Below, piece after piece: positions 6,676-59,543 of a stretch of 64,000 bases of DNA. Where the stretch lies: positions 35,726 to 99,725 of the IMG/VR virus record IMGVR_UViG_3300021057_000011. One strand, given 5' to 3'. A program made the translations under genes and the position numbers. How positions within the stretch are numbered: the stretch's first letter is position 1; each line of letters begins with the position of its first letter. A model generated the notes under the pieces. It saw only the letters and a program-made list of their open reading frames with translations, had not been told where the DNA came from and searched no databases. The DNA is from a virus.

Positions 6676-7698
6676 CTAGACATACTTCGAGGCCGGTTGA
6701 TAGGCCGGATCGATCGGCTGCGCTGGAGGAGTCATGATGGTGACCGGCGGCCCCTGCACAGGGGGCACCGGGGCACCCACCGGGGCCTGGCCGGGCTGGA
6801 TGAAGGCTCCACCCTGCGACGGCGACACATAGCCCTGCTGTGTACCAGTCTGTGGCCAGGGCGGCACGCTGCCGGGGGCCGGCACCGGAATCTGCACGCC
6901 AAGGACCACCGAGGGCTGTGTCGGTCCCTGCGGCTGGGTCAGATCGGTCTGGGTGCCCAAGCTGTTGCTGGCCTTGGCAGCTTCCTGCTCGCGCTGGCGG
7001 CGCAGCATCACACAGAAGGCCTCCATTTCCTCGGCCGTGGGGGTGCCGAAATCCATCTCGGCGTCCCAGTTGATGGTCTGCAGCTTGGCCAGCAGCTCGT
7101 GGTCGATCGGCTGCAGCTGGCCGGGCACGACCCCGTCCATCAGCTTGGGCAGGAAGGAGTATTCCTTGCTGTTGGAGTTGTCAGCGATCCGGGTGACGGA
7201 CAGGGGAAACTGCATCATCGAGCCGTAGTTCTTGATGACTTCGAGCATCTTGTTGAGGCAGAGCATGCTGATGCCACGCCAGATCAGAATCTGATTGTCC
7301 TGGCTGTACTGCTTGCCGGATTTTTTGGAGGTGTAGACTCCGCCGATGTGGCGCCCTGCAATAAAGCCGACCGTGCGCGGGGTATCGTGCTCCTCGTCGC
7401 AGGCCCGGCAGGGTCCGACATAGACGACCTTGGAAGGATCGCTGGGGTCCGACTGGGCAGACTTGGTGCAGGTCACCTTGTCCTTGCCGTTGTTGGTTTC
7501 GTGCTGACGGTACTTGCCAAAGCACGGCATCAGGAACTGCATAATCTTGGTTTCGCCAGGATTGAACCAGGTGTAGCGGAAGTTCTTGTTTTCGTTTTCT
7601 GCCCGCTCGGCCTGGCGCTTGGCCTGCTCTTCGGCCTGCATCTGGGCTTCCGCCTGGACTTCGGCGATCACGTTCATTCCGAATGAAAGACTGGACAT
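6676..7698 (-). CDS. Phage single-stranded DNA-binding protein, gp32-like, with a Pro/Gln-rich tail
   Basis: Aromatic OB-like core with H/C/C/C Zn ligands (QHET...TCT...CRAC), LSVTRI...KEYSF; located in the replication module. Confidence 0.6.
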   Translation of the reverse strand: MSSLSFGMNVIAEVQAEAQMQAEEQAKRQAERAENENKNFRYTWFNPGETKIMQFLMPCFGKYRQHETNNGKDKVTCTKSAQSDPSDPSKVVYVGPCRACDEEHDTPRTVGFIAGRHIGGVYTSKKSGKQYSQDNQILIWRGISMLCLNKMLEVIKNYGSMMQFPLSVTRIADNSNSKEYSFLPKLMDGVVPGQLQPIDHELLAKLQTINWDAEMDFGTPTAEEMEAFCVMLRRQREQEAAKASNSLGTQTDLTQPQGPTQPSVVLGVQIPVPAPGSVPPWPQTGTQQGYVSPSQGGAFIQPGQAPVGAPVPPVQGPPVTIMTPPAQPIDPAYQPASKYV

Positions 7699-14400: not shown

Positions 14401-15054
14401 CTAGCGACTGTGACCACCTCCCATCAGTTTTTTCATCACGGCTTCTTTGGCCCGCGGCCGGTAATCGACCTCGGGCAGTTCCACCGTCACGTTCAACGCA
14501 AGGATCTCGTCCAGAAGAGAAGCGCCCAGCGCACTCTCGAGCTCGGCGTGGGTGGCGGAGGTGACGAAGAAGGTGATTTTTCCGTTTTGACGCCGGCGCT
14601 TGAGCACATAGGCGACCAGCTCCGAAAGCGGCCGGGCCTTGGCTCGTGAGGCATCGAGCAGCCGGGGAAAATCGTCCAGGATCAGGACCGAGCAGGTCAG
14701 CAGATGCTGCACCCGTTCTGTCTGTGCCTCGGAGCTGTACTGAAAAACGGTTTCCGCCACGGCATCGAGATCGACGCATTCCGGCTGCAGCGCGTAGGTC
14801 GCGCACAGATGCTTGGCGATGATCGACACCAGGGTGGTTTTCCCCGATCCCGGGATGCCCGTGATGGTCAGGCCCGTCTGCGTTGGGATCATGTCGGTGA
14901 AATTCTGGACGTAGGCCCGCGCGACACGCTGGGTCAGTTTATCCTCCAAGCTCTCGAAATCGAACTTCAACAGATCGAGCCGAAAGCCGTGCTGAGTCAG
15001 GGCGTTGTACACCCACGGGGGCGTTGGGTCGGTCATGGTTTCCTCCGTAGTCAT
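14401..15054 (-). CDS. DnaC/IstB-like AAA+ helicase loader
   Basis: GIPGSGKTT, VLILDD and RRQNGKITFFVT; directly downstream of the initiator. Confidence 0.88.
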   Translation of the reverse strand: MTTEETMTDPTPPWVYNALTQHGFRLDLLKFDFESLEDKLTQRVARAYVQNFTDMIPTQTGLTITGIPGSGKTTLVSIIAKHLCATYALQPECVDLDAVAETVFQYSSEAQTERVQHLLTCSVLILDDFPRLLDASRAKARPLSELVAYVLKRRRQNGKITFFVTSATHAELESALGASLLDEILALNVTVELPEVDYRPRAKEAVMKKLMGGGHSR

Positions 15055-16112
15055 GGGGTTTCAAAATCCTCCAACGAAAAATCCGCTCGCAACACGCGAA
15101 CCGGTCCCCTCGTCCCCGTCCGCGTCGGGTGACGGGTTTCCAGTTCCGCGGCGACATGGGTGACCATCTGCACCAGGCCACCCAGGGTCGGCAAATCCCA
15201 GCTCAGCCGCTCCATGCACTTGAGGGTCTTGAACTGGGTGATCCAGAACGTCACCAGAGCCCGGGAACGGACCACATCGCCCTGGTAGGCGGCCAGAAGG
15301 ACTTTGGCCTTACCGACCTCAGCCCCGCGGCTGGAAGCGGCCTTTACGGGCAAATGGGGGTAAGTCTCGAGAAAGACCTGGTAATAATGCTGAACCAGCT
15401 CGGCCGCCGGGCTGGGGGGGCGGCCGGTTCGGGGGGGCTTTTTAGCGGCCGCATTCGAATGCTTGACCAGAGCGGCTTCTTCCGCCTGTTTGATTCGGGC
15501 CAATTTATCAGCGGCGGAGGGTTTTTGACCAGACGGAGAGGGAGAGTAGCCAGGTGAGTCTTCAGCCGCTCTTTTTTGCTCTTCTTCCAAAGGGAGAGGA
15601 TACCGAAACCCTTCTCCCTCTTCCTGGTTTTTCTCCTGGTCCGACTTTTCTGCTGCAGAAGAAGAATACGTAGTATTCTTCTTCTTTTCTTTTAGTAATT
15701 GTTTATTAGACTGTGTATGGTCTGCCGACAGTCGGTTTTTCCCGCGTGTGGGTAAATCATACACACGGCTCGACCCGCATGAATCCTGGGGTTTAGGCTT
15801 CGGGGGTTTCAAAACCCATTTTTTTCCGCAAAACTGCTTTGTTTCCGGGTGTAGCTTGTTCTTGATTTCGAGCAAGTCGGCGTCTTTGAGTTCCTTGGTG
15901 GCCTTCCGCACCAGATGGTCGCTGCCTAAAAAGCTCTCGAGCACCTTCCGCTTGATTTCCCAACGGGAAATATTGGAGTTGAGATAGCCATACAGGGCTC
16001 TGGCTGCCAGGCTCAAATCATCTCGCATAAAGATGACGCGAGGCGTCATGACGAAACCTTCAGAGCCGCAGCCGGATTCGTTTTCTAGTTCAATGCTTTC
16101 GTCATTCGCCAT
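15051..16112 (-). CDS. Phage replication initiator (lambda O/DnaD-like layout)
   Basis: N-terminal wHTH (DDLSLAARALYGYLNS), disordered linker and helical C-terminal domain; paired with DnaC. Confidence 0.75.
   Translation of the reverse strand: MANDESIELENESGCGSEGFVMTPRVIFMRDDLSLAARALYGYLNSNISRWEIKRKVLESFLGSDHLVRKATKELKDADLLEIKNKLHPETKQFCGKKWVLKPPKPKPQDSCGSSRVYDLPTRGKNRLSADHTQSNKQLLKEKKKNTTYSSSAAEKSDQEKNQEEGEGFRYPLPLEEEQKRAAEDSPGYSPSPSGQKPSAADKLARIKQAEEAALVKHSNAAAKKPPRTGRPPSPAAELVQHYYQVFLETYPHLPVKAASSRGAEVGKAKVLLAAYQGDVVRSRALVTFWITQFKTLKCMERLSWDLPTLGGLVQMVTHVAAELETRHPTRTGTRGPVRVLRADFSLEDFETP
15657..15720. other. Candidate replication origin inside the initiator gene
   Basis: Perfect 13-bp inverted repeat AGAAGAAGAATAC-gta-GTATTCTTCTTCT (15657-15685) followed by an AT-rich tract. 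Confidence 0.4.
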
Positions 16113-17499: not shown

Positions 17500-18150
17500 C
17501 TATGCTTTACGATTTGCGGCAGCCTCCGGTGACACAAATGTGTATCCTTCGAGCTCCTGGTCTGTGTCGAGGTATGTTTTAGCCAGTATCCTATGGCTCG
17601 TAAATCCCAAATATTTTTTGGCAGCTTTAAATGTGTGGAAGGCGCCTACGAGTTCAGAACCTTTATACACAACAACTGGCTTGAAATTTTTTGAATAGTT
17701 TCCGTACCATGTGGTTACCCGAATGTTATCTAGACTATATCCTTTGGAATCATCTAGGCGATCTAGGCTAGGTTTGAAATTTCTGTTTTTATCTCCATCT
17801 AGCCAAGTCGTGTAGATCTTCAGATATACCGGATCGTTCAGGTACCGGTCTATTAGTTCTGCCAAGGTATATGTTGGTGGAGGATGTCCCCTTCTTTTAC
17901 TATTTATTACTTGAGCGCTGAACAACATATGCAAGATTCCTTTCGGAGTCTCCTCCCACTTTTCACCATAGCCCAGCTCCTTAACCGTGTTACCAAGGGG
18001 AAGTTCGTTGGTGCACGTCGGGGGGTATTTGACTGAGGGGTCCTCGCCGTACCTTGCTACTTGCCTCAGCCAAGCATTTCTTCGTCGTGTCTCATTTCGT
18101 TTGATTTGTGCTGCTATGACTAGTTGATCGCGACCCTTATCATCCGACAT
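17500..18150 (-). CDS. His-Me finger (HNH-like) free-standing endonuclease with a NUMOD-like C-terminus
   Basis: PSLDRLDDSKGYSLDNIRVTTWYGN motif; C-terminal KPVVVY...FHTFKAAKKYLG; markedly AT-richer than its flanks. Confidence 0.75.
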   Translation of the reverse strand: MSDDKGRDQLVIAAQIKRNETRRRNAWLRQVARYGEDPSVKYPPTCTNELPLGNTVKELGYGEKWEETPKGILHMLFSAQVINSKRRGHPPPTYTLAELIDRYLNDPVYLKIYTTWLDGDKNRNFKPSLDRLDDSKGYSLDNIRVTTWYGNYSKNFKPVVVYKGSELVGAFHTFKAAKKYLGFTSHRILAKTYLDTDQELEGYTFVSPEAAANRKA

Positions 18151-18225
18151 AAGTTTCACCTTTCTGGTTTTAGCTATTCTTCGTCAAGATCCATTACTTT
18201 AAGGGGGTCGGATGGTTTGCATGGG

Positions 18226-22591: not shown

Positions 22592-23182
22592 TCAGGGCAC
22601 CGCATGCGCGGCAGCGTAATTGCTGATCTCGTCCATCGACGGCATCCGTGGCCGCACTTTGTCGTCTCCGATTTCGACCTGGTCGAGCCGGTAGCGGCGC
22701 ACGACATCGAAGAAGACCCGGTAATCGTCCGGGTGGGCATCTTCGAGACATTCAATGAAGTAATTTTCAGATGCCTCATCGTGGTCGATGGTGCCGCCGA
22801 GATGGTGCCAGGCCAGGGCGTATAGCGCCTTGATCAGGCAATCGTAACTTTTGCGGGCGGTTTTGGTGAAGGTGAAGGGTTCTTCATTTTCACGGTAGTC
22901 AGGGTTTTGAATCAGCAGATCTTCGTGCGGACCCATGACGTGGATGCGCTCAAGAGGATCGCCGTCCTCCGCCGGCCACAGCTTCCAGCGGCAGCACTCC
23001 CTCACGGCCTGCCCGTCCTGGTAGGCATCGTAGAGAGGATCGCCTTCTTCGCGGAGGGCCATGAAGGTCTCGTCGGCTTCGGGCACCTGAAAGGCTTTCA
23101 GTATGTCCAAGGCGGCGGCATTGAAAGCCGCCATTGTCTCCGGGGTCTCGGTCCAATTACTGTAGTACGCGGTGTATCCCAT
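22592..23182 (-). CDS. First gene of the early cluster, hypothetical (MGYT...FTKTARKSYD)
   Basis: AAAGGAG SD; motif resembles a recurrent phage hypothetical family. Confidence 0.75.
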   Translation of the reverse strand: MGYTAYYSNWTETPETMAAFNAAALDILKAFQVPEADETFMALREEGDPLYDAYQDGQAVRECCRWKLWPAEDGDPLERIHVMGPHEDLLIQNPDYRENEEPFTFTKTARKSYDCLIKALYALAWHHLGGTIDHDEASENYFIECLEDAHPDDYRVFFDVVRRYRLDQVEIGDDKVRPRMPSMDEISNYAAAHAVP

Positions 23183-23207: not shown

Positions 23208-23249
23208 AAAAAACGGCAAAAGCCCGGAAGGGAATCCCTTCCGGGCTTT
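23208..23249 (-). terminator. Terminator-like hairpin T3 in the early-operon leader
   Basis: 15-bp perfect arms (23219-23233/23235-23249) followed by TTTTGCCGTTTTTT. Confidence 0.6.
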
Positions 23250-23325
23250 GTCCGGGTCATAAGCGCCAGCGACATAACCAACGATACAAAGCGATGTTCA
23301 CAGTTCCTCCTGCAAATCGACAGAT

Positions 23326-23362
23326 AAAAAAAGGGCCCGGAGCTCACTCAAGCTCCGGGCCC
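23326..23362 (-). terminator. Intrinsic terminator T2
   Basis: 12-bp stem GGGCCCGGAGCT/AGCTCCGGGCCC plus T7. Confidence 0.8.
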
Positions 23363-23435
23363 GAAAGGTTTACATAGGAATATTTTTTCTAAGGGGATCC
23401 GATAGACAGTTCTTGGGAAACGGAATGGCGGCTCA

Positions 23436-23496: not shown

Positions 23497-23534
23497 AAAA
23501 ATCAGCCGCTGCATATAACAGCGGCTGATTTTTT
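23497..23534. terminator. Bidirectional intrinsic terminator T1
   Basis: 15-bp arms AAAAATCAGCCGCTG/CAGCGGCTGATTTTT, giving a T-run on both strands. Confidence 0.8.
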
Positions 23535-23672
23535 CTGCCACGGGACCGCCCTGTGGCCTAGAGAATTCAAGCACTTTCAGATTAAGAGCCGTTTATGATA
23601 GGGTTATCAAGGTTAAGGTTTAGGGTTAAACTTTGGTTAACAAAACCCATGGCCTCTAGGTTATGCGGCTTT

Positions 23673-24074
23673 TTAGGCGGCGACCAGGAAATCGGTTTTC
23701 AGCTGCCGCTGCAGCGCGGATTTTTTATTGGGGGCCGGGATGAAGCTGTAGCCCGTGCACTTTTCCAGAAAGGCCAGGTCCATGTCCACCGGCCGGTTGA
23801 TCAGCAGCCAGGTCTGCATTCCAGGGTGCCGGCGAACCAGCTGATCGGCCAGGGTCTTGCCGGTGAGCTCGTCCCCGGAGATGTAGAGATCGCTGATCAG
23901 CAGGCTCAGGTGCTCTTCAAAGTCGGGCGAGGACAGCGTAAACAAGGCCGCCTGCGCCGAGGTAAACGCCAAGACCTTTATCCCTTTGCGTTCAAACCAG
24001 GTGCGAATCAGCCCCCGGGTTTCCGAGCTCGTGTCAATCACGGCGACCAGGGCATTTTTGTCCAAATGCATCAT
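23673..24074 (-). CDS. Stand-alone CheY-like (pseudo-)receiver domain protein
   Basis: VAVIDTSSETRGLIRTWF..KG.KVLAFTSAQAAL, LLISDLY, TGKTLADQL: clear REC fold. Keeps the phospho-acceptor Asp but lacks the conserved Thr/Ser and Lys. Confidence 0.8.
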   Translation of the reverse strand: MMHLDKNALVAVIDTSSETRGLIRTWFERKGIKVLAFTSAQAALFTLSSPDFEEHLSLLISDLYISGDELTGKTLADQLVRRHPGMQTWLLINRPVDMDLAFLEKCTGYSFIPAPNKKSALQRQLKTDFLVAA

Positions 24075-24430
24075 CCGTTGGGGCTCCTTTTCTCCGGATG
24101 CTTGAGTTCCCAAATGCGATCATCGAGCGTCTTGAGGCGCAGATCGGTTTCCAGTTTTTCCGCCTTGTGGTTCCAAAGGTTGTGCTGTTCCATTTCGAGT
24201 CGCGACAGCCGTTCGTCGGTCTTGGTCTTGTACTCGCTGGTGCTGGTCGCGGAGGCCTTGCCTTCGAGGTCCTTGATCAGATCCATCTCGAGTTTGTCGA
24301 TCGCGGTCTTGAGATCCGACAGCGGCTCGACGATTTCTTTCTTGATCCACCAGCCGATCAAGGTTGCAAGGGCCCCCAGAATCACCAGTGCCACCGGCCA
24401 AAAGGTCCGGATCAACTCGAGCCAACTCAT
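24071..24430 (-). CDS. Single-TM coiled-coil protein (XhlA/holin-like architecture)
   Basis: Hydrophobic N-terminal helix, then KK, then a coiled coil; stop overlaps the receiver start. Confidence 0.7.
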   Translation of the reverse strand: MSWLELIRTFWPVALVILGALATLIGWWIKKEIVEPLSDLKTAIDKLEMDLIKDLEGKASATSTSEYKTKTDERLSRLEMEQHNLWNHKAEKLETDLRLKTLDDRIWELKHPEKRSPNG

Positions 24431-24451
24431 GGATTAATCTTTCTATTTTTT

Positions 24452-24480
24452 AGTATAACCACTTGTTTTAACATTCTCAA
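24452..24480 (-). promoter_or_regulatory. Sigma70-type promoter for the TM/receiver unit
   Basis: TTGAGA-17 bp-TATACT with AT-rich upstream DNA. Confidence 0.7.
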
Positions 24481-24545
24481 GACTCGCTCTGTCTATTTTT
24501 TAAGACGTTCTTTACGCTTTCGTTTTATTACATCTTTTTTCTTAT

Positions 24546-24575
24546 AAAAAAGGCCAGGAGCGGAGGCCCCCGGCC
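24546..24575 (-). terminator. Terminator ending the tail-fibre operon
   Basis: 9-bp GC-rich stem (2 G-U pairs) plus T6. Confidence 0.65.
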
Positions 24576-24594: not shown

Positions 24595-24981
24595 TTACGA
24601 GGTCAAGGCCTGCACGACCTCTTCCTCGGTCAGGTATTGCTTTTCAATCAGCAGGTCGATCAGTTTGGGGGCATTGTCCGACGTGATCTTGAGGGCCTGC
24701 GCCAGCTGCCAGGCCGCCTCAAGGGCCACTTCGTCAGCCACGGTGTCCAGCGCGAGCTGCTCCATTGCTGCCCGGTCTTCGGCCGAGGCCCATTTGTCCG
24801 CCGGCAGTAGGGGCTCCCCGGCATCGTCGACGAGCTCGGGCCCGTGAAACAGGATCCGGATCTGACTCAGGGGATCGGGGTGCGTGTGCAGGCCGTTGTT
24901 GCAGCCCACGCCCCCGTACCGGGTACCATAGCCGGCGGCATCGAAGGCCTTGGAAATTTCATGGGCCAGACTGAAGCGCAT
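24595..24981 (-). CDS. Tail fibre assembly/chaperone-like protein
   Basis: Follows the last fibre gene (TGATG overlap); helical C-terminus. Confidence 0.55.
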   Translation of the reverse strand: MRFSLAHEISKAFDAAGYGTRYGGVGCNNGLHTHPDPLSQIRILFHGPELVDDAGEPLLPADKWASAEDRAAMEQLALDTVADEVALEAAWQLAQALKITSDNAPKLIDLLIEKQYLTEEEVVQALTS

Positions 24982-29090: not shown

Positions 29091-29504
29091 CTATTGTCCT
29101 AAAGTGAAAAAGATTTTCCCGGTGGACCCGGGGGTCCGGGTACGCATGTAAAGGGTGTCCTTTCGCGTGCGCAACCGAATGTCTGCGCCCCGACGCGCGT
29201 ACTTGCGCGCGGGGGAATACAGTTCCGACGCCAGCTCCCCAACACCGGGCGCCGGGGGATCGTCGGTCCCGTTTTCTTGGAACGACCAGTAGACCCCGTC
29301 GGCAACGTCCTCACAGTCGAAGACGATGAACGCGGTCTTGACCGGCAGATCCACCACGAACTCGTCTCCGGCACTCAGGCTTTGATCGGCGAGGATTTCG
29401 GCGATGTCGACCTCCCAGCCTTGGGGATCGGCGGGCGTGGTCAACGCGGCCAGCTCATCCATGGACACGCCCGTGCTGGGCAGCTCGAGCTCGAGGTCAG
29501 CCAT
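29091..29504 (-). CDS. Small acidic beta-rich virion protein
   Basis: Operon position. Confidence 0.6.
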   Translation of the reverse strand: MADLELELPSTGVSMDELAALTTPADPQGWEVDIAEILADQSLSAGDEFVVDLPVKTAFIVFDCEDVADGVYWSFQENGTDDPPAPGVGELASELYSPARKYARRGADIRLRTRKDTLYMRTRTPGSTGKIFFTLGQ

Positions 29505-29883
29505 TGCGGACCTCCCGCTCTGGATGGATGTGGTGCACGGCGGCGTCGATTGCGGCTTCGATCCGGGACGGGGTCATCGCCGGGAACTCCATGCCGAGCT
29601 TGCCCATCACTGCGTCCTTGAGCTGCGTGCCCTCCAAGGTCGGGACCCTGGGGTCGTTGCGCGACCGACGCTGGGCTTCTTGGGCCGCCGCGACATATTG
29701 CAGCGCGAGGCTTTCGAGCATGCGCTGCTGTTCGGCGTTGATCTGAAGGTCTTTGGTGGCCGCGTTGCGCTGCAGGGCCGCGTTGAGCTGGTAGACCAGA
29801 TAGGGGGTCAGCACCGACACGACGATCGGAGAGAGATCGACGATCAGCTGCGATACCGCGTGGGTGAGGGGGGTCAGGTCCAT
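29497..29883 (-). CDS. Holin-like protein (LL-H type architecture)
   Basis: N-terminal hydrophobic helix, VAAAQE..., LKDAVMGKL...IEAAIDAAV pattern. Confidence 0.6.
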   Translation of the reverse strand: MDLTPLTHAVSQLIVDLSPIVVSVLTPYLVYQLNAALQRNAATKDLQINAEQQRMLESLALQYVAAAQEAQRRSRNDPRVPTLEGTQLKDAVMGKLGMEFPAMTPSRIEAAIDAAVHHIHPEREVRNG

Positions 29884-35386: not shown

Positions 35387-37263
35387 GCCGGCAAATAATC
35401 CGACGGCAGAATCGGCAGCTCGAGGGATTCGGGCGTGGCCCAGCCGTCCGCCGGCAGCACATCGGAATCCTTCACCAGCTGGTTGTAGACCTGGACATTG
35501 ATCGCCCAGCTCCACATCCGCTCGGTCCCGTCGATCCACTGCACGTTGAAGCCGTTTTGAGGTCCAAACACACAGCCCAGGGCAAAGGTCTCACCAAAGA
35601 CCTCGAGCCCGATCCGATCGAGGACCGGGCCCGCGCGCAGCTCCTCGTTGTTGTTGCCGCTGAACAGGCGGAGCGAATCGGCATGCAGCTTCTGCTTGGT
35701 CGCAATGCTGAGCCGATCCCCCAGGGCCAGCTGCTGCTCGAGCAGCTCGAGCAGGGCCCAGGCCTTTTGGTGCTCGAAGTTTTTCGTCTGCAGCTTTTGC
35801 ACCAGCGAGTTCTCCAGCAGCTCGCCGGAGAAATCGTACTCGAGCGAAAAGCGGCCGTGCACGATGTTTTCCAGCAGCTCGTCCTCGTAGGCCTCTTTGA
35901 CCTTTTCGATCATGCTGACGGTGGTGTGCAGAATATAGCGGTAGACCTTTTCCTCGCGGCGGGTGTTGCCATCGGCCTGCGCGGTCTCCTTGGTCAGGGT
36001 GATCGTCTTGGTGCCCTGGTCGTAATCGACGGCATCCGTGCGGGAGGTGGTGATCACTTCCGTGCTGCGCTCGGTGCGCTCGGTCTCGGTGATCACCTCA
36101 ACCCCGTTGCTGTCGAGCTCGCGTGTGCTCGTGCGGGTCGTGGTCGTGCCGTCGGAGCTCTGTTCGGTGAATTCGGTGGTCTGGCTCGTGGGGGTGCGCT
36201 CCGTGCTCGAGGTTGTGGTGCGCAGCCAGTTGCCGTTTTTGTCGTAGACCTTGGTTTCGTTGGTTTCGTTTAAGGGGCTGATGACGGTGCTGACGGTTTC
36301 CTGGCGGGCTTCTTGAAACTCCTGCTCGAGCTTGGCCAGCGGGTCGAGGTAGGGCTCTTCGCGCACCGTGGCCTCGACAAACTGATTGCCGTCGGGGTCG
36401 GTCTTGGTGGTGTAGACGTGGGTGATCTTGAGGTTGCTGTCGGGGTCGATCGTGACCTCTTCGACACTTTCGTCGGCACTCCCCTGGCTCAGAACCGTGT
36501 CGGTCTCGTTCGGCGGGGCCGGCTCCACGGTCGATTTCATTTCGTCGTTCCAGTAGGCCAGGTCTTGCTCGACGGTGCTGGGTCCGATGTACTGAACGAA
36601 GCGCATGCCGGTGATGGTGGTTAGCTCGATCGGCTTGCCGAAGACCTTGGGGTTGGTGGTGTAGACCTGCCGCCGGGTTTTGCTGCGGCGGGTAGCGGTC
36701 CCGGTCGGGCCCACCAGATCCTCGGGATCCGCCAGGGTGGTTTCGACCACCACCGTTTCGGTCTGGCTGCTCGGCGGCAGGGTCCGGGTCGTGCGCGTGG
36801 AGGTGCGCGGGAACTGCTTGGGGCTGACCTCGGAAATCGAGGTGGTGTGGGAGCCGCGGTTCTGCTGCGGCCCGATGGCTTCGTAAAAGGCCTGCAGCGA
36901 GCCGTAGGGGTTGGTCCCGTTGATCAGGTGGTATTCGTTGTTGGGATCGAAGACCGTCTCGTAGGTTTCCTTGACCCGGGTGCCGTCGGACTCGGTGTAG
37001 GTCTTTTCCCGGATCGTGGTGATCGAGCCGTCACGGTTGACCCGCTCGGTGGTGGATTCACGGGCCTTGCCCAGGGCCTCGCCCGTGAGCCAGCTGCGGG
37101 TGCGGATCTCGAAGCGGGGCTGCTTGGCGGAAATGGCCTTGACCGGCAAGATAATGCCGCCGAGGGAGACCACGCAGCCGTTGTACTGGGCCAGCAGCTC
37201 CGCGTTGCGGGCCTGCTCCTCGGACGTGAGGTCGAAGTAGTACTTGCCGTCGATCAGGGCCAT
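35383..37263 (-). CDS. Thr/Glu-rich tail protein with beta-hairpin-like repeats
   Basis: Recurrent T-x-T...DG/DPDG turns; tail-tip cluster. Confidence 0.6.
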   Translation of the reverse strand: MALIDGKYYFDLTSEEQARNAELLAQYNGCVVSLGGIILPVKAISAKQPRFEIRTRSWLTGEALGKARESTTERVNRDGSITTIREKTYTESDGTRVKETYETVFDPNNEYHLINGTNPYGSLQAFYEAIGPQQNRGSHTTSISEVSPKQFPRTSTRTTRTLPPSSQTETVVVETTLADPEDLVGPTGTATRRSKTRRQVYTTNPKVFGKPIELTTITGMRFVQYIGPSTVEQDLAYWNDEMKSTVEPAPPNETDTVLSQGSADESVEEVTIDPDSNLKITHVYTTKTDPDGNQFVEATVREEPYLDPLAKLEQEFQEARQETVSTVISPLNETNETKVYDKNGNWLRTTTSSTERTPTSQTTEFTEQSSDGTTTTRTSTRELDSNGVEVITETERTERSTEVITTSRTDAVDYDQGTKTITLTKETAQADGNTRREEKVYRYILHTTVSMIEKVKEAYEDELLENIVHGRFSLEYDFSGELLENSLVQKLQTKNFEHQKAWALLELLEQQLALGDRLSIATKQKLHADSLRLFSGNNNEELRAGPVLDRIGLEVFGETFALGCVFGPQNGFNVQWIDGTERMWSWAINVQVYNQLVKDSDVLPADGWATPESLELPILPSDYLPA

Positions 37264-38952: not shown

Positions 38953-39060
38953 AAGCGGGCGCTCCCTTGTCAGGTGGTGGATGGAACCTGATCGGTGAGC
39001 CAAAAAGGGGGCCGGCGGGGTGATCGGTCAGGGTGGCAAGACGGCCAAAACCCTGATGCG

Positions 39061-39089
39061 AGTATGCGCTATTGTGAGGGGAAGTTCAA
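39061..39089 (-). promoter_or_regulatory. Sigma70-type promoter candidate for the tail-tip genes
   Basis: TTGAAC-17 bp-CATACT. Confidence 0.5.
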
Positions 39090-39246
39090 GGTAGAGGCGG
39101 TGAAGTTCCGGATCACGCCTGTGTATTCAAAAGATCTATTCATTTCTTTCGGTTTTTGAATAAATTCGCCTTAATCTATTCTTAGTTGATCCCTATGCTA
39201 CGATGGAATCGAAATTTCTAGCTTGTGTTGAATAGACGAGGTGCTT

Positions 39247-39585
39247 ATGTCAAAATCCAACCAGTCTGTTGACTGGACTGCGCGTGATGCGCGAGTCGAA
39301 TCGATCCCACTTCTGACAGCCCCCGATCCCGATAAGTCGAAAGACTGGTTTACCCCAGTTAGTAGATATTCACACAGTCCCAGGCATGCCTATCATTTCT
39401 ATCGTCCCGTGAGGGTTTCGAAACCCTATCGAACAAAGGTGTCAACACCACGCAAAGCCTCTCCTGAAGGTAGCTCGGTTGTGTGCTTAACACCTGCGCT
39501 CTGTTGCGTCCATTGTGGGGACCACCCTACCAATCTCAGTGACCATTACGATCACTGCCGCATGAATCCCTTGGCTAGTGGTTAA
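39247..39585 (+). CDS. Opposite-strand small protein with a C-terminal C2HC-like Zn finger
   Basis: GAGGTG SD; CVHC-x9-H-x3-C; AT-richer DNA. Confidence 0.55.
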   Translation: MSKSNQSVDWTARDARVESIPLLTAPDPDKSKDWFTPVSRYSHSPRHAYHFYRPVRVSKPYRTKVSTPRKASPEGSSVVCLTPALCCVHCGDHPTNLSDHYDHCRMNPLASG

Positions 39586-39845
39586 GTCTCTTTAGCCGAA
39601 AGCCTCATCGACCCATAAAGCAGCATCATTATGACAAATGCCCAAGCAACACTTGGCCAAAAGGCTTGGTGTAGGTGGTACACAAGAAAAACAAAGATTA
39701 GCCCACCGATAACGGTCGAAATTTCAGAGTGATATGCTTTTTCGGCTTTACGCTTCTGAACCTGGAGACCGTAACCACATTTAGGGCAGGCCAGGGCCTG
39801 ATCGGACATATGGGTTTTGCACTCTGGGCACGGAATTAGGGTCAT
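39582..39845 (-). CDS. Double zinc-ribbon + 2-TM membrane protein
   Basis: CPECKTHMSDQALACPKCG, then two hydrophobic helices; GAGGAGG SD. Confidence 0.8.
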   Translation of the reverse strand: MTLIPCPECKTHMSDQALACPKCGYGLQVQKRKAEKAYHSEISTVIGGLIFVFLVYHLHQAFWPSVAWAFVIMMLLYGSMRLSAKET

Positions 39846-39899
39846 TGAGGGGCCTCCTCGTCAGTGGGTGCCCCGATCATACCATGGGTCGCCGGATTT

Positions 39900-58538: not shown

Positions 58539-59543
58539 CTACAGCTTCGCCCGGGTGTAGTTCACGCCCCCGCCACTGCTGCGGGCGATCAGGTACTCCT
58601 TGCGGGGCACGGATCCCGCTTCGGCAATCCCGACATGGACCCACGAGCCGAACTCCTCGATCACCTGATCCACCGGCAGATTCAGGGAGTGGATGAAGCG
58701 CATCAGGGCGTCGTTGGTCATGCCCGGGACATGGATGTCCGCCGCCCGGCCGTACATGTGGGCGGAGTACTTTGCTCCTCCGATGGCGCGGTTGAGCTCC
58801 GGGCCGCGGTAGCCGGAGGTCACGACCACAGGCTTGCCGAGGGCTACACGCAGGGGCTCGAGCACGGTGTCGCACAGCCGCTCGAGATTGGCGATCTCCT
58901 TCGGGCCCGGGGTGTTGGGAATGCCCTTGCGCGCGGCGGTTTGAGAGACGGTGAGCTCGGTGAGGGTGAAGTGGGCTGACAGCTGGCCCGGAGGCCCATT
59001 TTTGGCGGGCTTTTCAGGCGGGTGGGACGCTGCGACGGGCAAGGGGGTGGTGCCTTTGACGGAGTTTTGCCGGACCCCTTCCTCCCAGAGATCCGCTTCC
59101 GCCGCCCGCCGCTTTTTGAGCCCTTCGGTGACATTTGTGCCGGGGTTGACGTAGAGCATGAAGGCCTGACGCATCGTGCCCCAGTCCTTGGTGCTGAGCT
59201 TGCGGCTGATGGTCTCGAAGCCCTTGGCATTGTAAAAGCCGGCGCCGAGGTTGTAGGCGAAGCTTTCGAGTGCGGCGATCTGGAGCGGGTGCATCTGATC
59301 GAAATAGGGCAGATTTTTGAGGGCCGGGGTGACCGTGGTGAGGACGTGTGAGGTGAGCTCAGCCTCGGCTTTGTCCTCGGTGATGGTATCCCCGCGGCGG
59401 ACGCGGAGCCCGTCGGCATAGACAGTGGTCCCGTAGCCGATGGTGGCGACATTCCAGCCGTGCAACGGATCGGGGTAGGCCTCGCGGCGGAAGCCTTCGA
59501 AACGTTTGATCAGGGCAATGCCCTCGGGGGTCGGTAGGTTCAT
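58539..59543 (-). CDS. Endolysin: GH24 lysozyme fused to an M15 (D-Ala-D-Ala-type) peptidase
   Basis: IKRFEG..AYPD...TIGYG and GLKKRRAAEADLW; SGYR..LN..GGA..SAH..G.AAD...WVH. Confidence 0.92.
   Translation of the reverse strand: MNLPTPEGIALIKRFEGFRREAYPDPLHGWNVATIGYGTTVYADGLRVRRGDTITEDKAEAELTSHVLTTVTPALKNLPYFDQMHPLQIAALESFAYNLGAGFYNAKGFETISRKLSTKDWGTMRQAFMLYVNPGTNVTEGLKKRRAAEADLWEEGVRQNSVKGTTPLPVAASHPPEKPAKNGPPGQLSAHFTLTELTVSQTAARKGIPNTPGPKEIANLERLCDTVLEPLRVALGKPVVVTSGYRGPELNRAIGGAKYSAHMYGRAADIHVPGMTNDALMRFIHSLNLPVDQVIEEFGSWVHVGIAEAGSVPRKEYLIARSSGGGVNYTRAKL

Follow-up and report, generated by a model that had tools for sequence, protein, structure and literature searches.

The window analyzed here is a 64,000-nucleotide (nt) stretch (positions 35,726 to 99,725) of the IMG/VR virus record IMGVR_UViG_3300021057_000011, which comprises 101,449 bp, is ~80% complete, has a GC content of 0.60 and carries nearly all of its genes on the minus strand; the source phage is uncultured and long-tailed. 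We examined a locus in which two small overlapping genes, gene 1 and gene 2, encode a predicted membrane-anchored coiled-coil protein and a stand-alone protein with the fold of a response-regulator receiver. An earlier note on this DNA had described an upstream terminator, a near-consensus promoter, the overlapping gene pair and a downstream terminator, and all of these are present.

The two-gene unit and its flanking signals

The features of the locus, in the direction of transcription, are as follows.

24575–24546 (−): intrinsic terminator; stem 24575–24552, 10 bp with 8 GC, followed by a T-run; ΔG −20.5 kcal/mol, z −3.2
24480–24452 (−): candidate sigma-70-like promoter, TTGAGA-17-TATACT; 10/12 consensus matches, predicted start near 24445
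24430–24071 (−): gene 1 (P0001, 119 residues); predicted N-terminal transmembrane (TM) helix and two long helices
24074–23673 (−): gene 2 (P0002, 133 residues); stand-alone pseudo-receiver
~23640–23600 (−): TTAAC(C) direct-repeat tract between gene 2 and its terminator; membership of the unit uncertain
23534–23497 (−): terminator ending the unit; 16-bp stem including A-U pairs; ΔG −26.2, z −7.1; scores on the plus strand too
~23362–23333 and 23249–23219 (−), within 23212–23365: two more strong terminators, ΔG −29.7 and −26.3, before the next gene at 23182

The last gene of the tail-fibre module ends at 24598, and the first terminator is placed so that it would close this upstream, late operon. 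The gap 5' of the pair is AT-rich, with a GC content of 0.43 that is among the lowest of the genome, and the TTGAGA-17-TATACT element within it is the sole site with at least 10/12 matches on the minus (coding) strand of the whole record. Genes 1 and 2 overlap by the four nucleotides ATGA. Downstream, no sigma-70-like site with at least 9/12 matches lies between the terminator of the pair and the first gene of the replication module, a stretch that holds the two further terminators; altogether, four of the ~10 clear minus-strand terminators fall within 1.35 kb of the pair. The pair thus appears to be an insulated, self-contained unit that is transcribed alone from the sigma-70-like promoter, and the consensus and folding evidence supports the earlier proposal of such a unit with its own host-type promoter-like site.

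A receiver fold lacking catalytic residues and its co-encoded membrane protein

Residues 10–120 of the gene 2 protein match the Pfam family Response_reg (PF00072) with 24.5 bits (24.2 in the genome search), which is below the gathering cut-off of 30.2; the receiver assignment therefore rests on the fold and on the neighbours recovered by HMMER. Among PDB sequences, receivers of the NtrC and NtrX types match best, with weak E-values. An AlphaFold2 model built from a 14-sequence alignment (predicted local distance difference test, pLDDT, 88.4; predicted template-modelling score, pTM, 0.84) consists of five strands and five helices in the (βα)5 order of receivers, with short extra strands at both ends. 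When this model was compared by Foldseek with the PDB, the top 50 matches were almost all receivers, with TM-scores of 0.6–0.7, and the matches in BFVD were receivers of viral kinases or regulators. Receivers that stand alone are well known among bacterial response regulators, for example CheY, DivK and Spo0F.

The catalytic residues were mapped by alignment to the NtrC receiver and to canonical receivers recovered in the same HMMER scan. Asp14 corresponds to the first acidic residue and Asp62 to the phosphate acceptor, while Thr15 replaces the second, metal-binding acid, Asn93 replaces the Thr/Ser and the conserved Lys is lacking, its place being taken by Ala in the sequence FIPAP. The canonical neighbours in the alignment keep [DE]-D, S-D, S-G and K-P-F, whereas P0002 and its six relatives have V-D-[ST], [ST]-[DE], V-N-[RK] and no Lys. 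All seven family members hence lack three of the five catalytic residues (the second acid, the Thr/Ser and the Lys), and the acceptor is Asp in five of the seven and Glu in the other two (P0004 and P0019). Two residues of helix α1, Trp26 and Lys30, are invariant in the family, as is Asn93, and none of the gene 2 proteins has a hydrophobic segment. The changes that the earlier note had read from the sequence (an acceptor Asp kept in LLISD, a DTS pocket, Asn for Thr/Ser and Ala in FIPAP) are the same as those in our alignment.

A pseudo-receiver (PsR) has been defined as a receiver without at least one of the five catalytic residues (PMC12632262), and by this definition the gene 2 protein, as aligned and modelled, is a pseudo-receiver. 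With three catalytic residues lost, phosphotransfer by this protein is very unlikely, and its regulation would have to be phosphorylation-independent. The earlier note had seen no kinase in the window, and the whole 101-kb record has no match to HATPase_c or HisKA, and no second receiver. Like bacterial pseudo-receivers, gene 2 encodes a (βα)5 receiver fold that stands alone, without an output domain, and lacks at least one catalytic residue; unlike them, it is phage-encoded, does not reach the Pfam cut-off, comes with its own coupled TM/coiled-coil gene in every lineage with readable upstream DNA and has an extra N-terminal strand and the invariant Trp26, Lys30 and Asn93. A review of pseudo-receivers does not mention phages (PMC12632262), and the receiver described in a survey of jumbo phages, 'cREC', is a different, catalytically intact one linked to NAD-processing genes. 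As far as we found, the literature holds no description of a phage-borne, translationally coupled cassette of membrane tether and pseudo-receiver.

Gene 1 fits no known family. Its product matches no Pfam family and has only weak PHROG matches, to 1009 and 3999 (function not known) and to 739 ('Rz-like spanin'). P0001 contains a single hydrophobic helix (residues 11–29), and in its AlphaFold model, which is of low confidence (pLDDT 64), helices 3–58 and 64–110 are separated by a break at 59–63. All five gene 1 homologues share the same arrangement: an N-terminal [IL]-[KR]-T-x-W-P motif and TM helix, a juxtamembrane W-[IV]-K-x-E-[IV]-x-x-P, a helical spacer of highly variable length and a C-terminal helix with L-W-x-x-K-[AT]-[DE] ... 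L-[KQ]-x-[LI]-[ED]. Their Gly-rich C-termini encode the ribosome-binding site of gene 2. In all five, 0–1 Lys/Arg residues precede the TM helix and 2–3 occur in the 15 residues behind it, a charge pattern that favours an N-out, C-in orientation, in which the coiled coil would probably be cytoplasmic, alongside the signal-less pseudo-receiver. The structure matches of gene 1 in the Atlas, to models of HisKA, HAMP and methyl-accepting chemotaxis proteins (MCP), are generic long helices with TM-scores below 0.5. No His is invariant in the five-member alignment.

Conservation, genomic context and age of the pair

The family is rare. Neither blastn of the region nor tblastn of P0001, P0002, P0003, P0006 and P0019 against GenBank phages gave a match, pattern scans of IMG/VR with both proteins, both family alignments and three neighbouring proteins gave no confirmed relative, and word-based protein searches returned the query alone. 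An exhaustive HMMER scan of 1.84 billion representatives recovered four gene 2 relatives, P0003 (47% identity), P0004, P0005 and P0006, and a profile search among 5.8 billion clusters added P0019 and P0020 and nothing else. By these searches the gene 2 family is a tiny separate clade of about seven protein clusters. Missed by current libraries, it gains from this work a name and a diagnostic pattern, VD[ST]...[ST][DE]...VN[RK] with no Lys.

Upstream DNA could be read in four phage-like lineages, and in each a homologue of P0001 lies immediately 5' of the gene 2 relative, the junction being either a 4-nt overlap or a spacing of 4–5 nt. The pairs and the contigs that carry them are:

P0015 + P0003: L003
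P0017 + P0005: L005, L006 and L007
P0018 + P0006: L008
P0021 + P0019: L009 and L010

The short P0020 contig has an overlapping upstream gene of matching size (125 residues), and the 614-bp P0004 contig retains only a 32-residue fragment upstream. The pair is therefore kept together in other phage-like contigs, which disposes of an objection that the earlier note had raised against its own reading, namely that the two genes might not be conserved together.

The surroundings of the pair were compared by blastp of all open reading frames (ORFs). L009 is syntenic with the window, with a tail-fibre homologue followed by the pair and then by replication genes, and L010 likewise has the pair at this junction. 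Between L009 and the window the pair is 24–34% identical and the core genes 23–40% (DnaB 40%, DEAD helicase 39%, primase 30%). The tail region is the site of the pair in L005 and L008, which have two large tail proteins in common with the window (26–28% identity); in L003 the pair lies between genes for a DHH phosphoesterase and a class II ribonucleotide reductase (RNR). A gap of at least 80 nt precedes the pair in every locus, and it contains a hairpin in the window, L005, L008 and L009. The relatives have GC contents of 0.35–0.41, and the GC content at third codon positions (GC3) of the pair tracks that of each genome; in the window it is 0.76 for gene 1 and 0.80 for gene 2, values typical of the genes of this genome. 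The GC3 match, the core-like divergence and the synteny with L009 together indicate that the pair is not a recent add-on. By these comparisons the cassette is old and has diverged along with its phages, yet has moved relative to its neighbours.

These data bear on the proposal that the pair is a moron, that is, in the concept of the Hendrix laboratory, an additional gene that is set between conserved neighbours and brings a promoter and a terminator of its own. The part of this proposal that concerns layout stands: like morons, the pair is bounded by terminators, has a promoter-like site of its own and is found at different places in related phages. The part that implies a newcomer does not, since its composition is not deviant, it occupies the same junction in L009 and L010, the former a distant relative, and there is no sign of a temperate lifestyle. 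In particular, no match to an integrase (tyrosine integrase) was found in the record, which is ~80% complete.

Nowhere else in the record are TTAACC motifs as dense as in the TTAAC(C) tract at 23640–23600, whose direct repeats are phased at ~10–11 nt. Similarly, the densest CTTAAC cluster of L009 (6210–6370) has six copies in 150 nt with a phasing of ~10–11 nt and lies ~200 nt downstream of the pair. The window has a single copy of the 12-mer TTAACCTTGATA, at 23605–23616 (−), and exact copies are present once each in L005 (region 7612–7641) and L006, in both just upstream of the pair. We considered the 12-mer as a general phage promoter and rejected this because of its single occurrence in the window. 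The tract may be an operator, a set of origin iterons or an RNA element linked to the cassette.

Proposed function and competing explanations

We propose that the pair is an autonomous cassette, long retained by a small clade of uncultured long-tailed phages, that makes a phosphorylation-independent, membrane-tethered pseudo-receiver complex; we put the probability of this reading at about 0.5. The cassette would be transcribed alone from the host-type sigma-70-like promoter and insulated by the terminators on both sides. Gene 1 would then supply a bitopic inner-membrane protein with a short N-terminus outside the cell and a ~90-residue helical coiled-coil part in the cytoplasm, and gene 2, translationally coupled to it, would supply a cytoplasmic single-domain receiver incapable of phosphotransfer catalysis. 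The strict coupling and co-conservation of the genes suggest that their products form a complex, which would assemble at the inner face of the membrane. We infer this topology and complex, as well as the expression timing and target of the cassette, from the features described above.

Receivers dock on the DHp helices of kinases through helix α1, and the pseudokinase DivL binds the single-domain receiver DivK. In a corresponding manner, the conserved C-terminal helix of gene 1 could hold the pseudo-receiver, possibly via its helix α1, and the tethered pseudo-receiver would affect a target near the membrane through protein binding alone. Because Trp26 and Lys30 are kept across phages of 35–60% GC, which presumably have different hosts, helix α1 would be expected to bind the co-encoded conserved helix and not variable host kinases. 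As a working analogy, then, both systems would have a membrane-anchored helical dimerization stalk that binds α1 of a single-domain receiver; unlike a kinase, gene 1 has no conserved His, HisKA and HATPase_c are absent from the record, and the structural resemblance is generic. For the common bacterial pseudo-receivers, little is known about switching and binding partners (PMC12632262). In the present case the neighbouring, coupled gene probably encodes the partner, and with ~250 residues in total and about seven clusters the pair offers a compact, tractable case of the use of a dead receiver.

Several points weigh against this proposal. When the 164-nt gap is shuffled, 3% of the resulting sequences contain a promoter-like site with at least 10/12 matches, so that the match has a chance expectation of ~3%, and the promoter was not convincingly recovered in the AT-rich relatives, where scans are uninformative because matches in such DNA are at background level. 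The gene 1 model is of low confidence, and the topology is deduced solely from the positive-inside rule, a poor guide for proteins of this kind. With a periplasmic coiled coil, the two products could not meet through it.

A more specific version of the proposal is speculative, and we regard it as rather unlikely. The pair would be a relic of a two-component system in which a DHp-like membrane stalk permanently docks a dead receiver, forming a phage-specific, phosphorylation-independent switch of an envelope event (holin/endolysin timing or superinfection exclusion) in uncultured siphophages. If true, this would be a regulator of a new class, for lysis or exclusion, assembled from signalling components, with the TTAAC(C) repeats possibly as its own cis-element.

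Among explanations other than a tethered pseudo-receiver complex, the strongest, though still doubtful, is that the pair assists lysis. In this view gene 1 would encode a releasin-, antiholin- or i-spanin-like membrane protein that aids or times the disruption of the envelope, with gene 2 as its cytoplasmic regulator; cytoplasmic antiholins are known, such as RIII of T4 and LydB of P1. The pair lies at most five genes downstream of an endolysin-like gene in L005, L008 and possibly L009, but not in the window or L003. In L005 and L008, endolysin-like and single-TM holin-like genes directly precede it, separated from it by one hairpin-containing gap. The endolysin-like gene of L005 (6489–7052) matches PHROG 10051 (E 5e-50), and that of L008 (5082–5675) matches PHROG 5867 (E 2e-14) and, weakly, Amidase_2. 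The holin-like genes there are P0022 and P0023, the latter with a weak match to PHROG 6918; the immediate upstream neighbour of the pair in L009 bears a weak resemblance to YkuD (E 0.05). As a separate observation, the presence of two endolysin-like families at one position in the related contigs L005 and L008 looks like a non-orthologous lysin replacement.

The corresponding genes of the window lie elsewhere:

29497–29883 (−): holin-like P0024, 128 residues, single-TM; PHROG 6918, E 1.5e-4 (weak); inside the tail module
58542–59543 (−): two-domain lysin, Phage_lysozyme and Peptidase_M15_3, both E ~1e-22; among head and packaging genes

Homologues of P0024 in L005 and L008 sit between the endolysin-like gene and the pair, whereas in the window this gene is 5 kb and seven genes away from it and the lysin (lysozyme and M15 domains) is 34 kb away. 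In L003 the DHH phosphoesterase and RNR neighbours provide no lysis context at all. The start of the 58542–59543 lysin gene is overlapped by an upstream 350-residue gene. We also asked whether the 128-residue gene just upstream of the pair (24598–24981) is a hidden lysin and rejected this, because Pfam, PHROGs, PDB sequences and the Atlas all gave no evidence for it.

Resemblances of gene 1 to known lysis proteins are of two kinds. One is to two-component spanins (lambda Rz/Rz1): four of the five homologues weakly match the Rz-like spanin family PHROG 739 (best E 2.4e-4), and gene 1 shares with these proteins an N-terminal TM helix and coiled coil and an overlapped or adjacent second gene. However, the gene 2 partner is a cytoplasmic receiver fold without signal peptide or lipobox, and the charges of gene 1 suggest the opposite topology. 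An embedded or overlapped o-spanin was rejected as well, as the pair region of the five loci has no plausible ORF with a lipobox in any frame, either inside gene 1 or behind it; a lone pattern match in L005 has no preceding hydrophobic signal segment.

The other resemblance is to the DUF2730 releasin gp25 of Mu, which has an N-out, C-in orientation and a cytoplasmic helical domain (PMC9239132). P0017 alone matches DUF2730 (PF10805), at 21.9 bits and below the cut-off of 24.9. Gene 1, by its predicted topology, resembles gp25 in size (~100 residues), in the TM helix at its N-terminus and in an anionic, helical domain on the cytoplasmic side. Both genes are followed by an ATGA-overlapped gene for a small cytoplasmic protein (gp26 in Mu), and the location of the pair in L005 and L008, shortly after an endolysin-like gene, is also that of DUF2730 genes. 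Against this, hhalign gave a probability of 0.5% for gene 1 as a homologue of gp25 and was negative for gene 1 as a homologue of Mu gp23 and for gene 2 as one of gp26; gp26 is not a receiver, the pair of the window is far from the lysin, and DUF2730 is reported solely in transposable Mu-like phages (PMC9239132). All matches to lysis families are below curated cut-offs and typical of a TM plus coiled-coil composition, and an own constitutive or early promoter would be unusual for a lysis effector. We therefore favour the tethered complex over a role in lysis control. If the link to lysis genes in L005 and L008 is functional, the pair would be a new kind of accessory factor, to be placed with the Mu releasin, LambdaSo Lcc6 and other lysis proteins outside the canonical set.

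Quite unlikely, in our estimation, is the suggestion of the earlier note that the receiver is held at the membrane as a decoy or phosphate sink and alters two-component signalling of the host, in the service of takeover, the exclusion of superinfecting phages or lysogenic conversion. The receiver fold is there and five of the seven members keep the acceptor Asp, a membrane location would bring the receiver near host sensor kinases, and the layout suggests expression by the host polymerase. In addition, PIT4, an early protein of a lytic Pseudomonas phage, is reported to affect several host two-component systems (PMC10714779). A phosphate sink nonetheless needs the catalytic set, of which every member lacks three of five residues and two of the seven (P0004 and P0019) also the acceptor Asp, so that this form of the suggestion is unlikely; a pure binding decoy for host kinases is possible. 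Invariant Trp26 and Lys30 on α1, the kinase-specificity helix, would be unexpected across phages of such different GC content if the targets were host-specific kinases. Lysogenic conversion is likewise unlikely, as no integrase was found and the pair diverged alongside core genes. Should the pair act on the host, a virulent-type phage would carry a takeover device derived from signalling proteins.

We consider it improbable that the two products do not interact, the pair being merely two co-transcribed small genes (gene 1, for example, a periplasmic exclusion or envelope coiled coil and gene 2 independent) or a cassette that serves the adjacent replication module with gene 1, next to an iteron-like array of repeats, as membrane anchor in the manner of p16.7 of phi29: the topology of gene 1 is a prediction from its charge pattern, a TTAAC(C) array follows the pair at the head of the replication genes in the window and the syntenic L009, and 15054–16112 weakly matches a replication initiator. 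Against this, gene order and coupling are strictly kept across three genomic contexts, which would be difficult to account for if the genes had no functional link. A DNA-binding domain is recognizable in neither protein, and in L005 the shared 12-mer has gone with the pair to the tail/lysis region, at a distance from replication genes.

Some features of the window and its relatives lie outside these questions. The gene at 17503–18159 (−) has a GC3 of 0.44, compared with 0.7–0.9 in its neighbours, and matches endonuclease VII/HNH PHROGs; it is likely a homing endonuclease gene inserted in the replication module. The class II RNR gene beside the pair in L003 (8570–10858) has a sub-threshold match to an intein-splicing domain (E 3e-5; 24.2 bits against a cut-off of 35.8 bits). 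Finally, downstream of a tape-measure-like gene of 2870 residues, 896 nt (39004–39899; GC 0.50) have no convincing minus-strand ORF and contain, at 39369–39396, the sole plus-strand promoter-like site with 10/12 matches.

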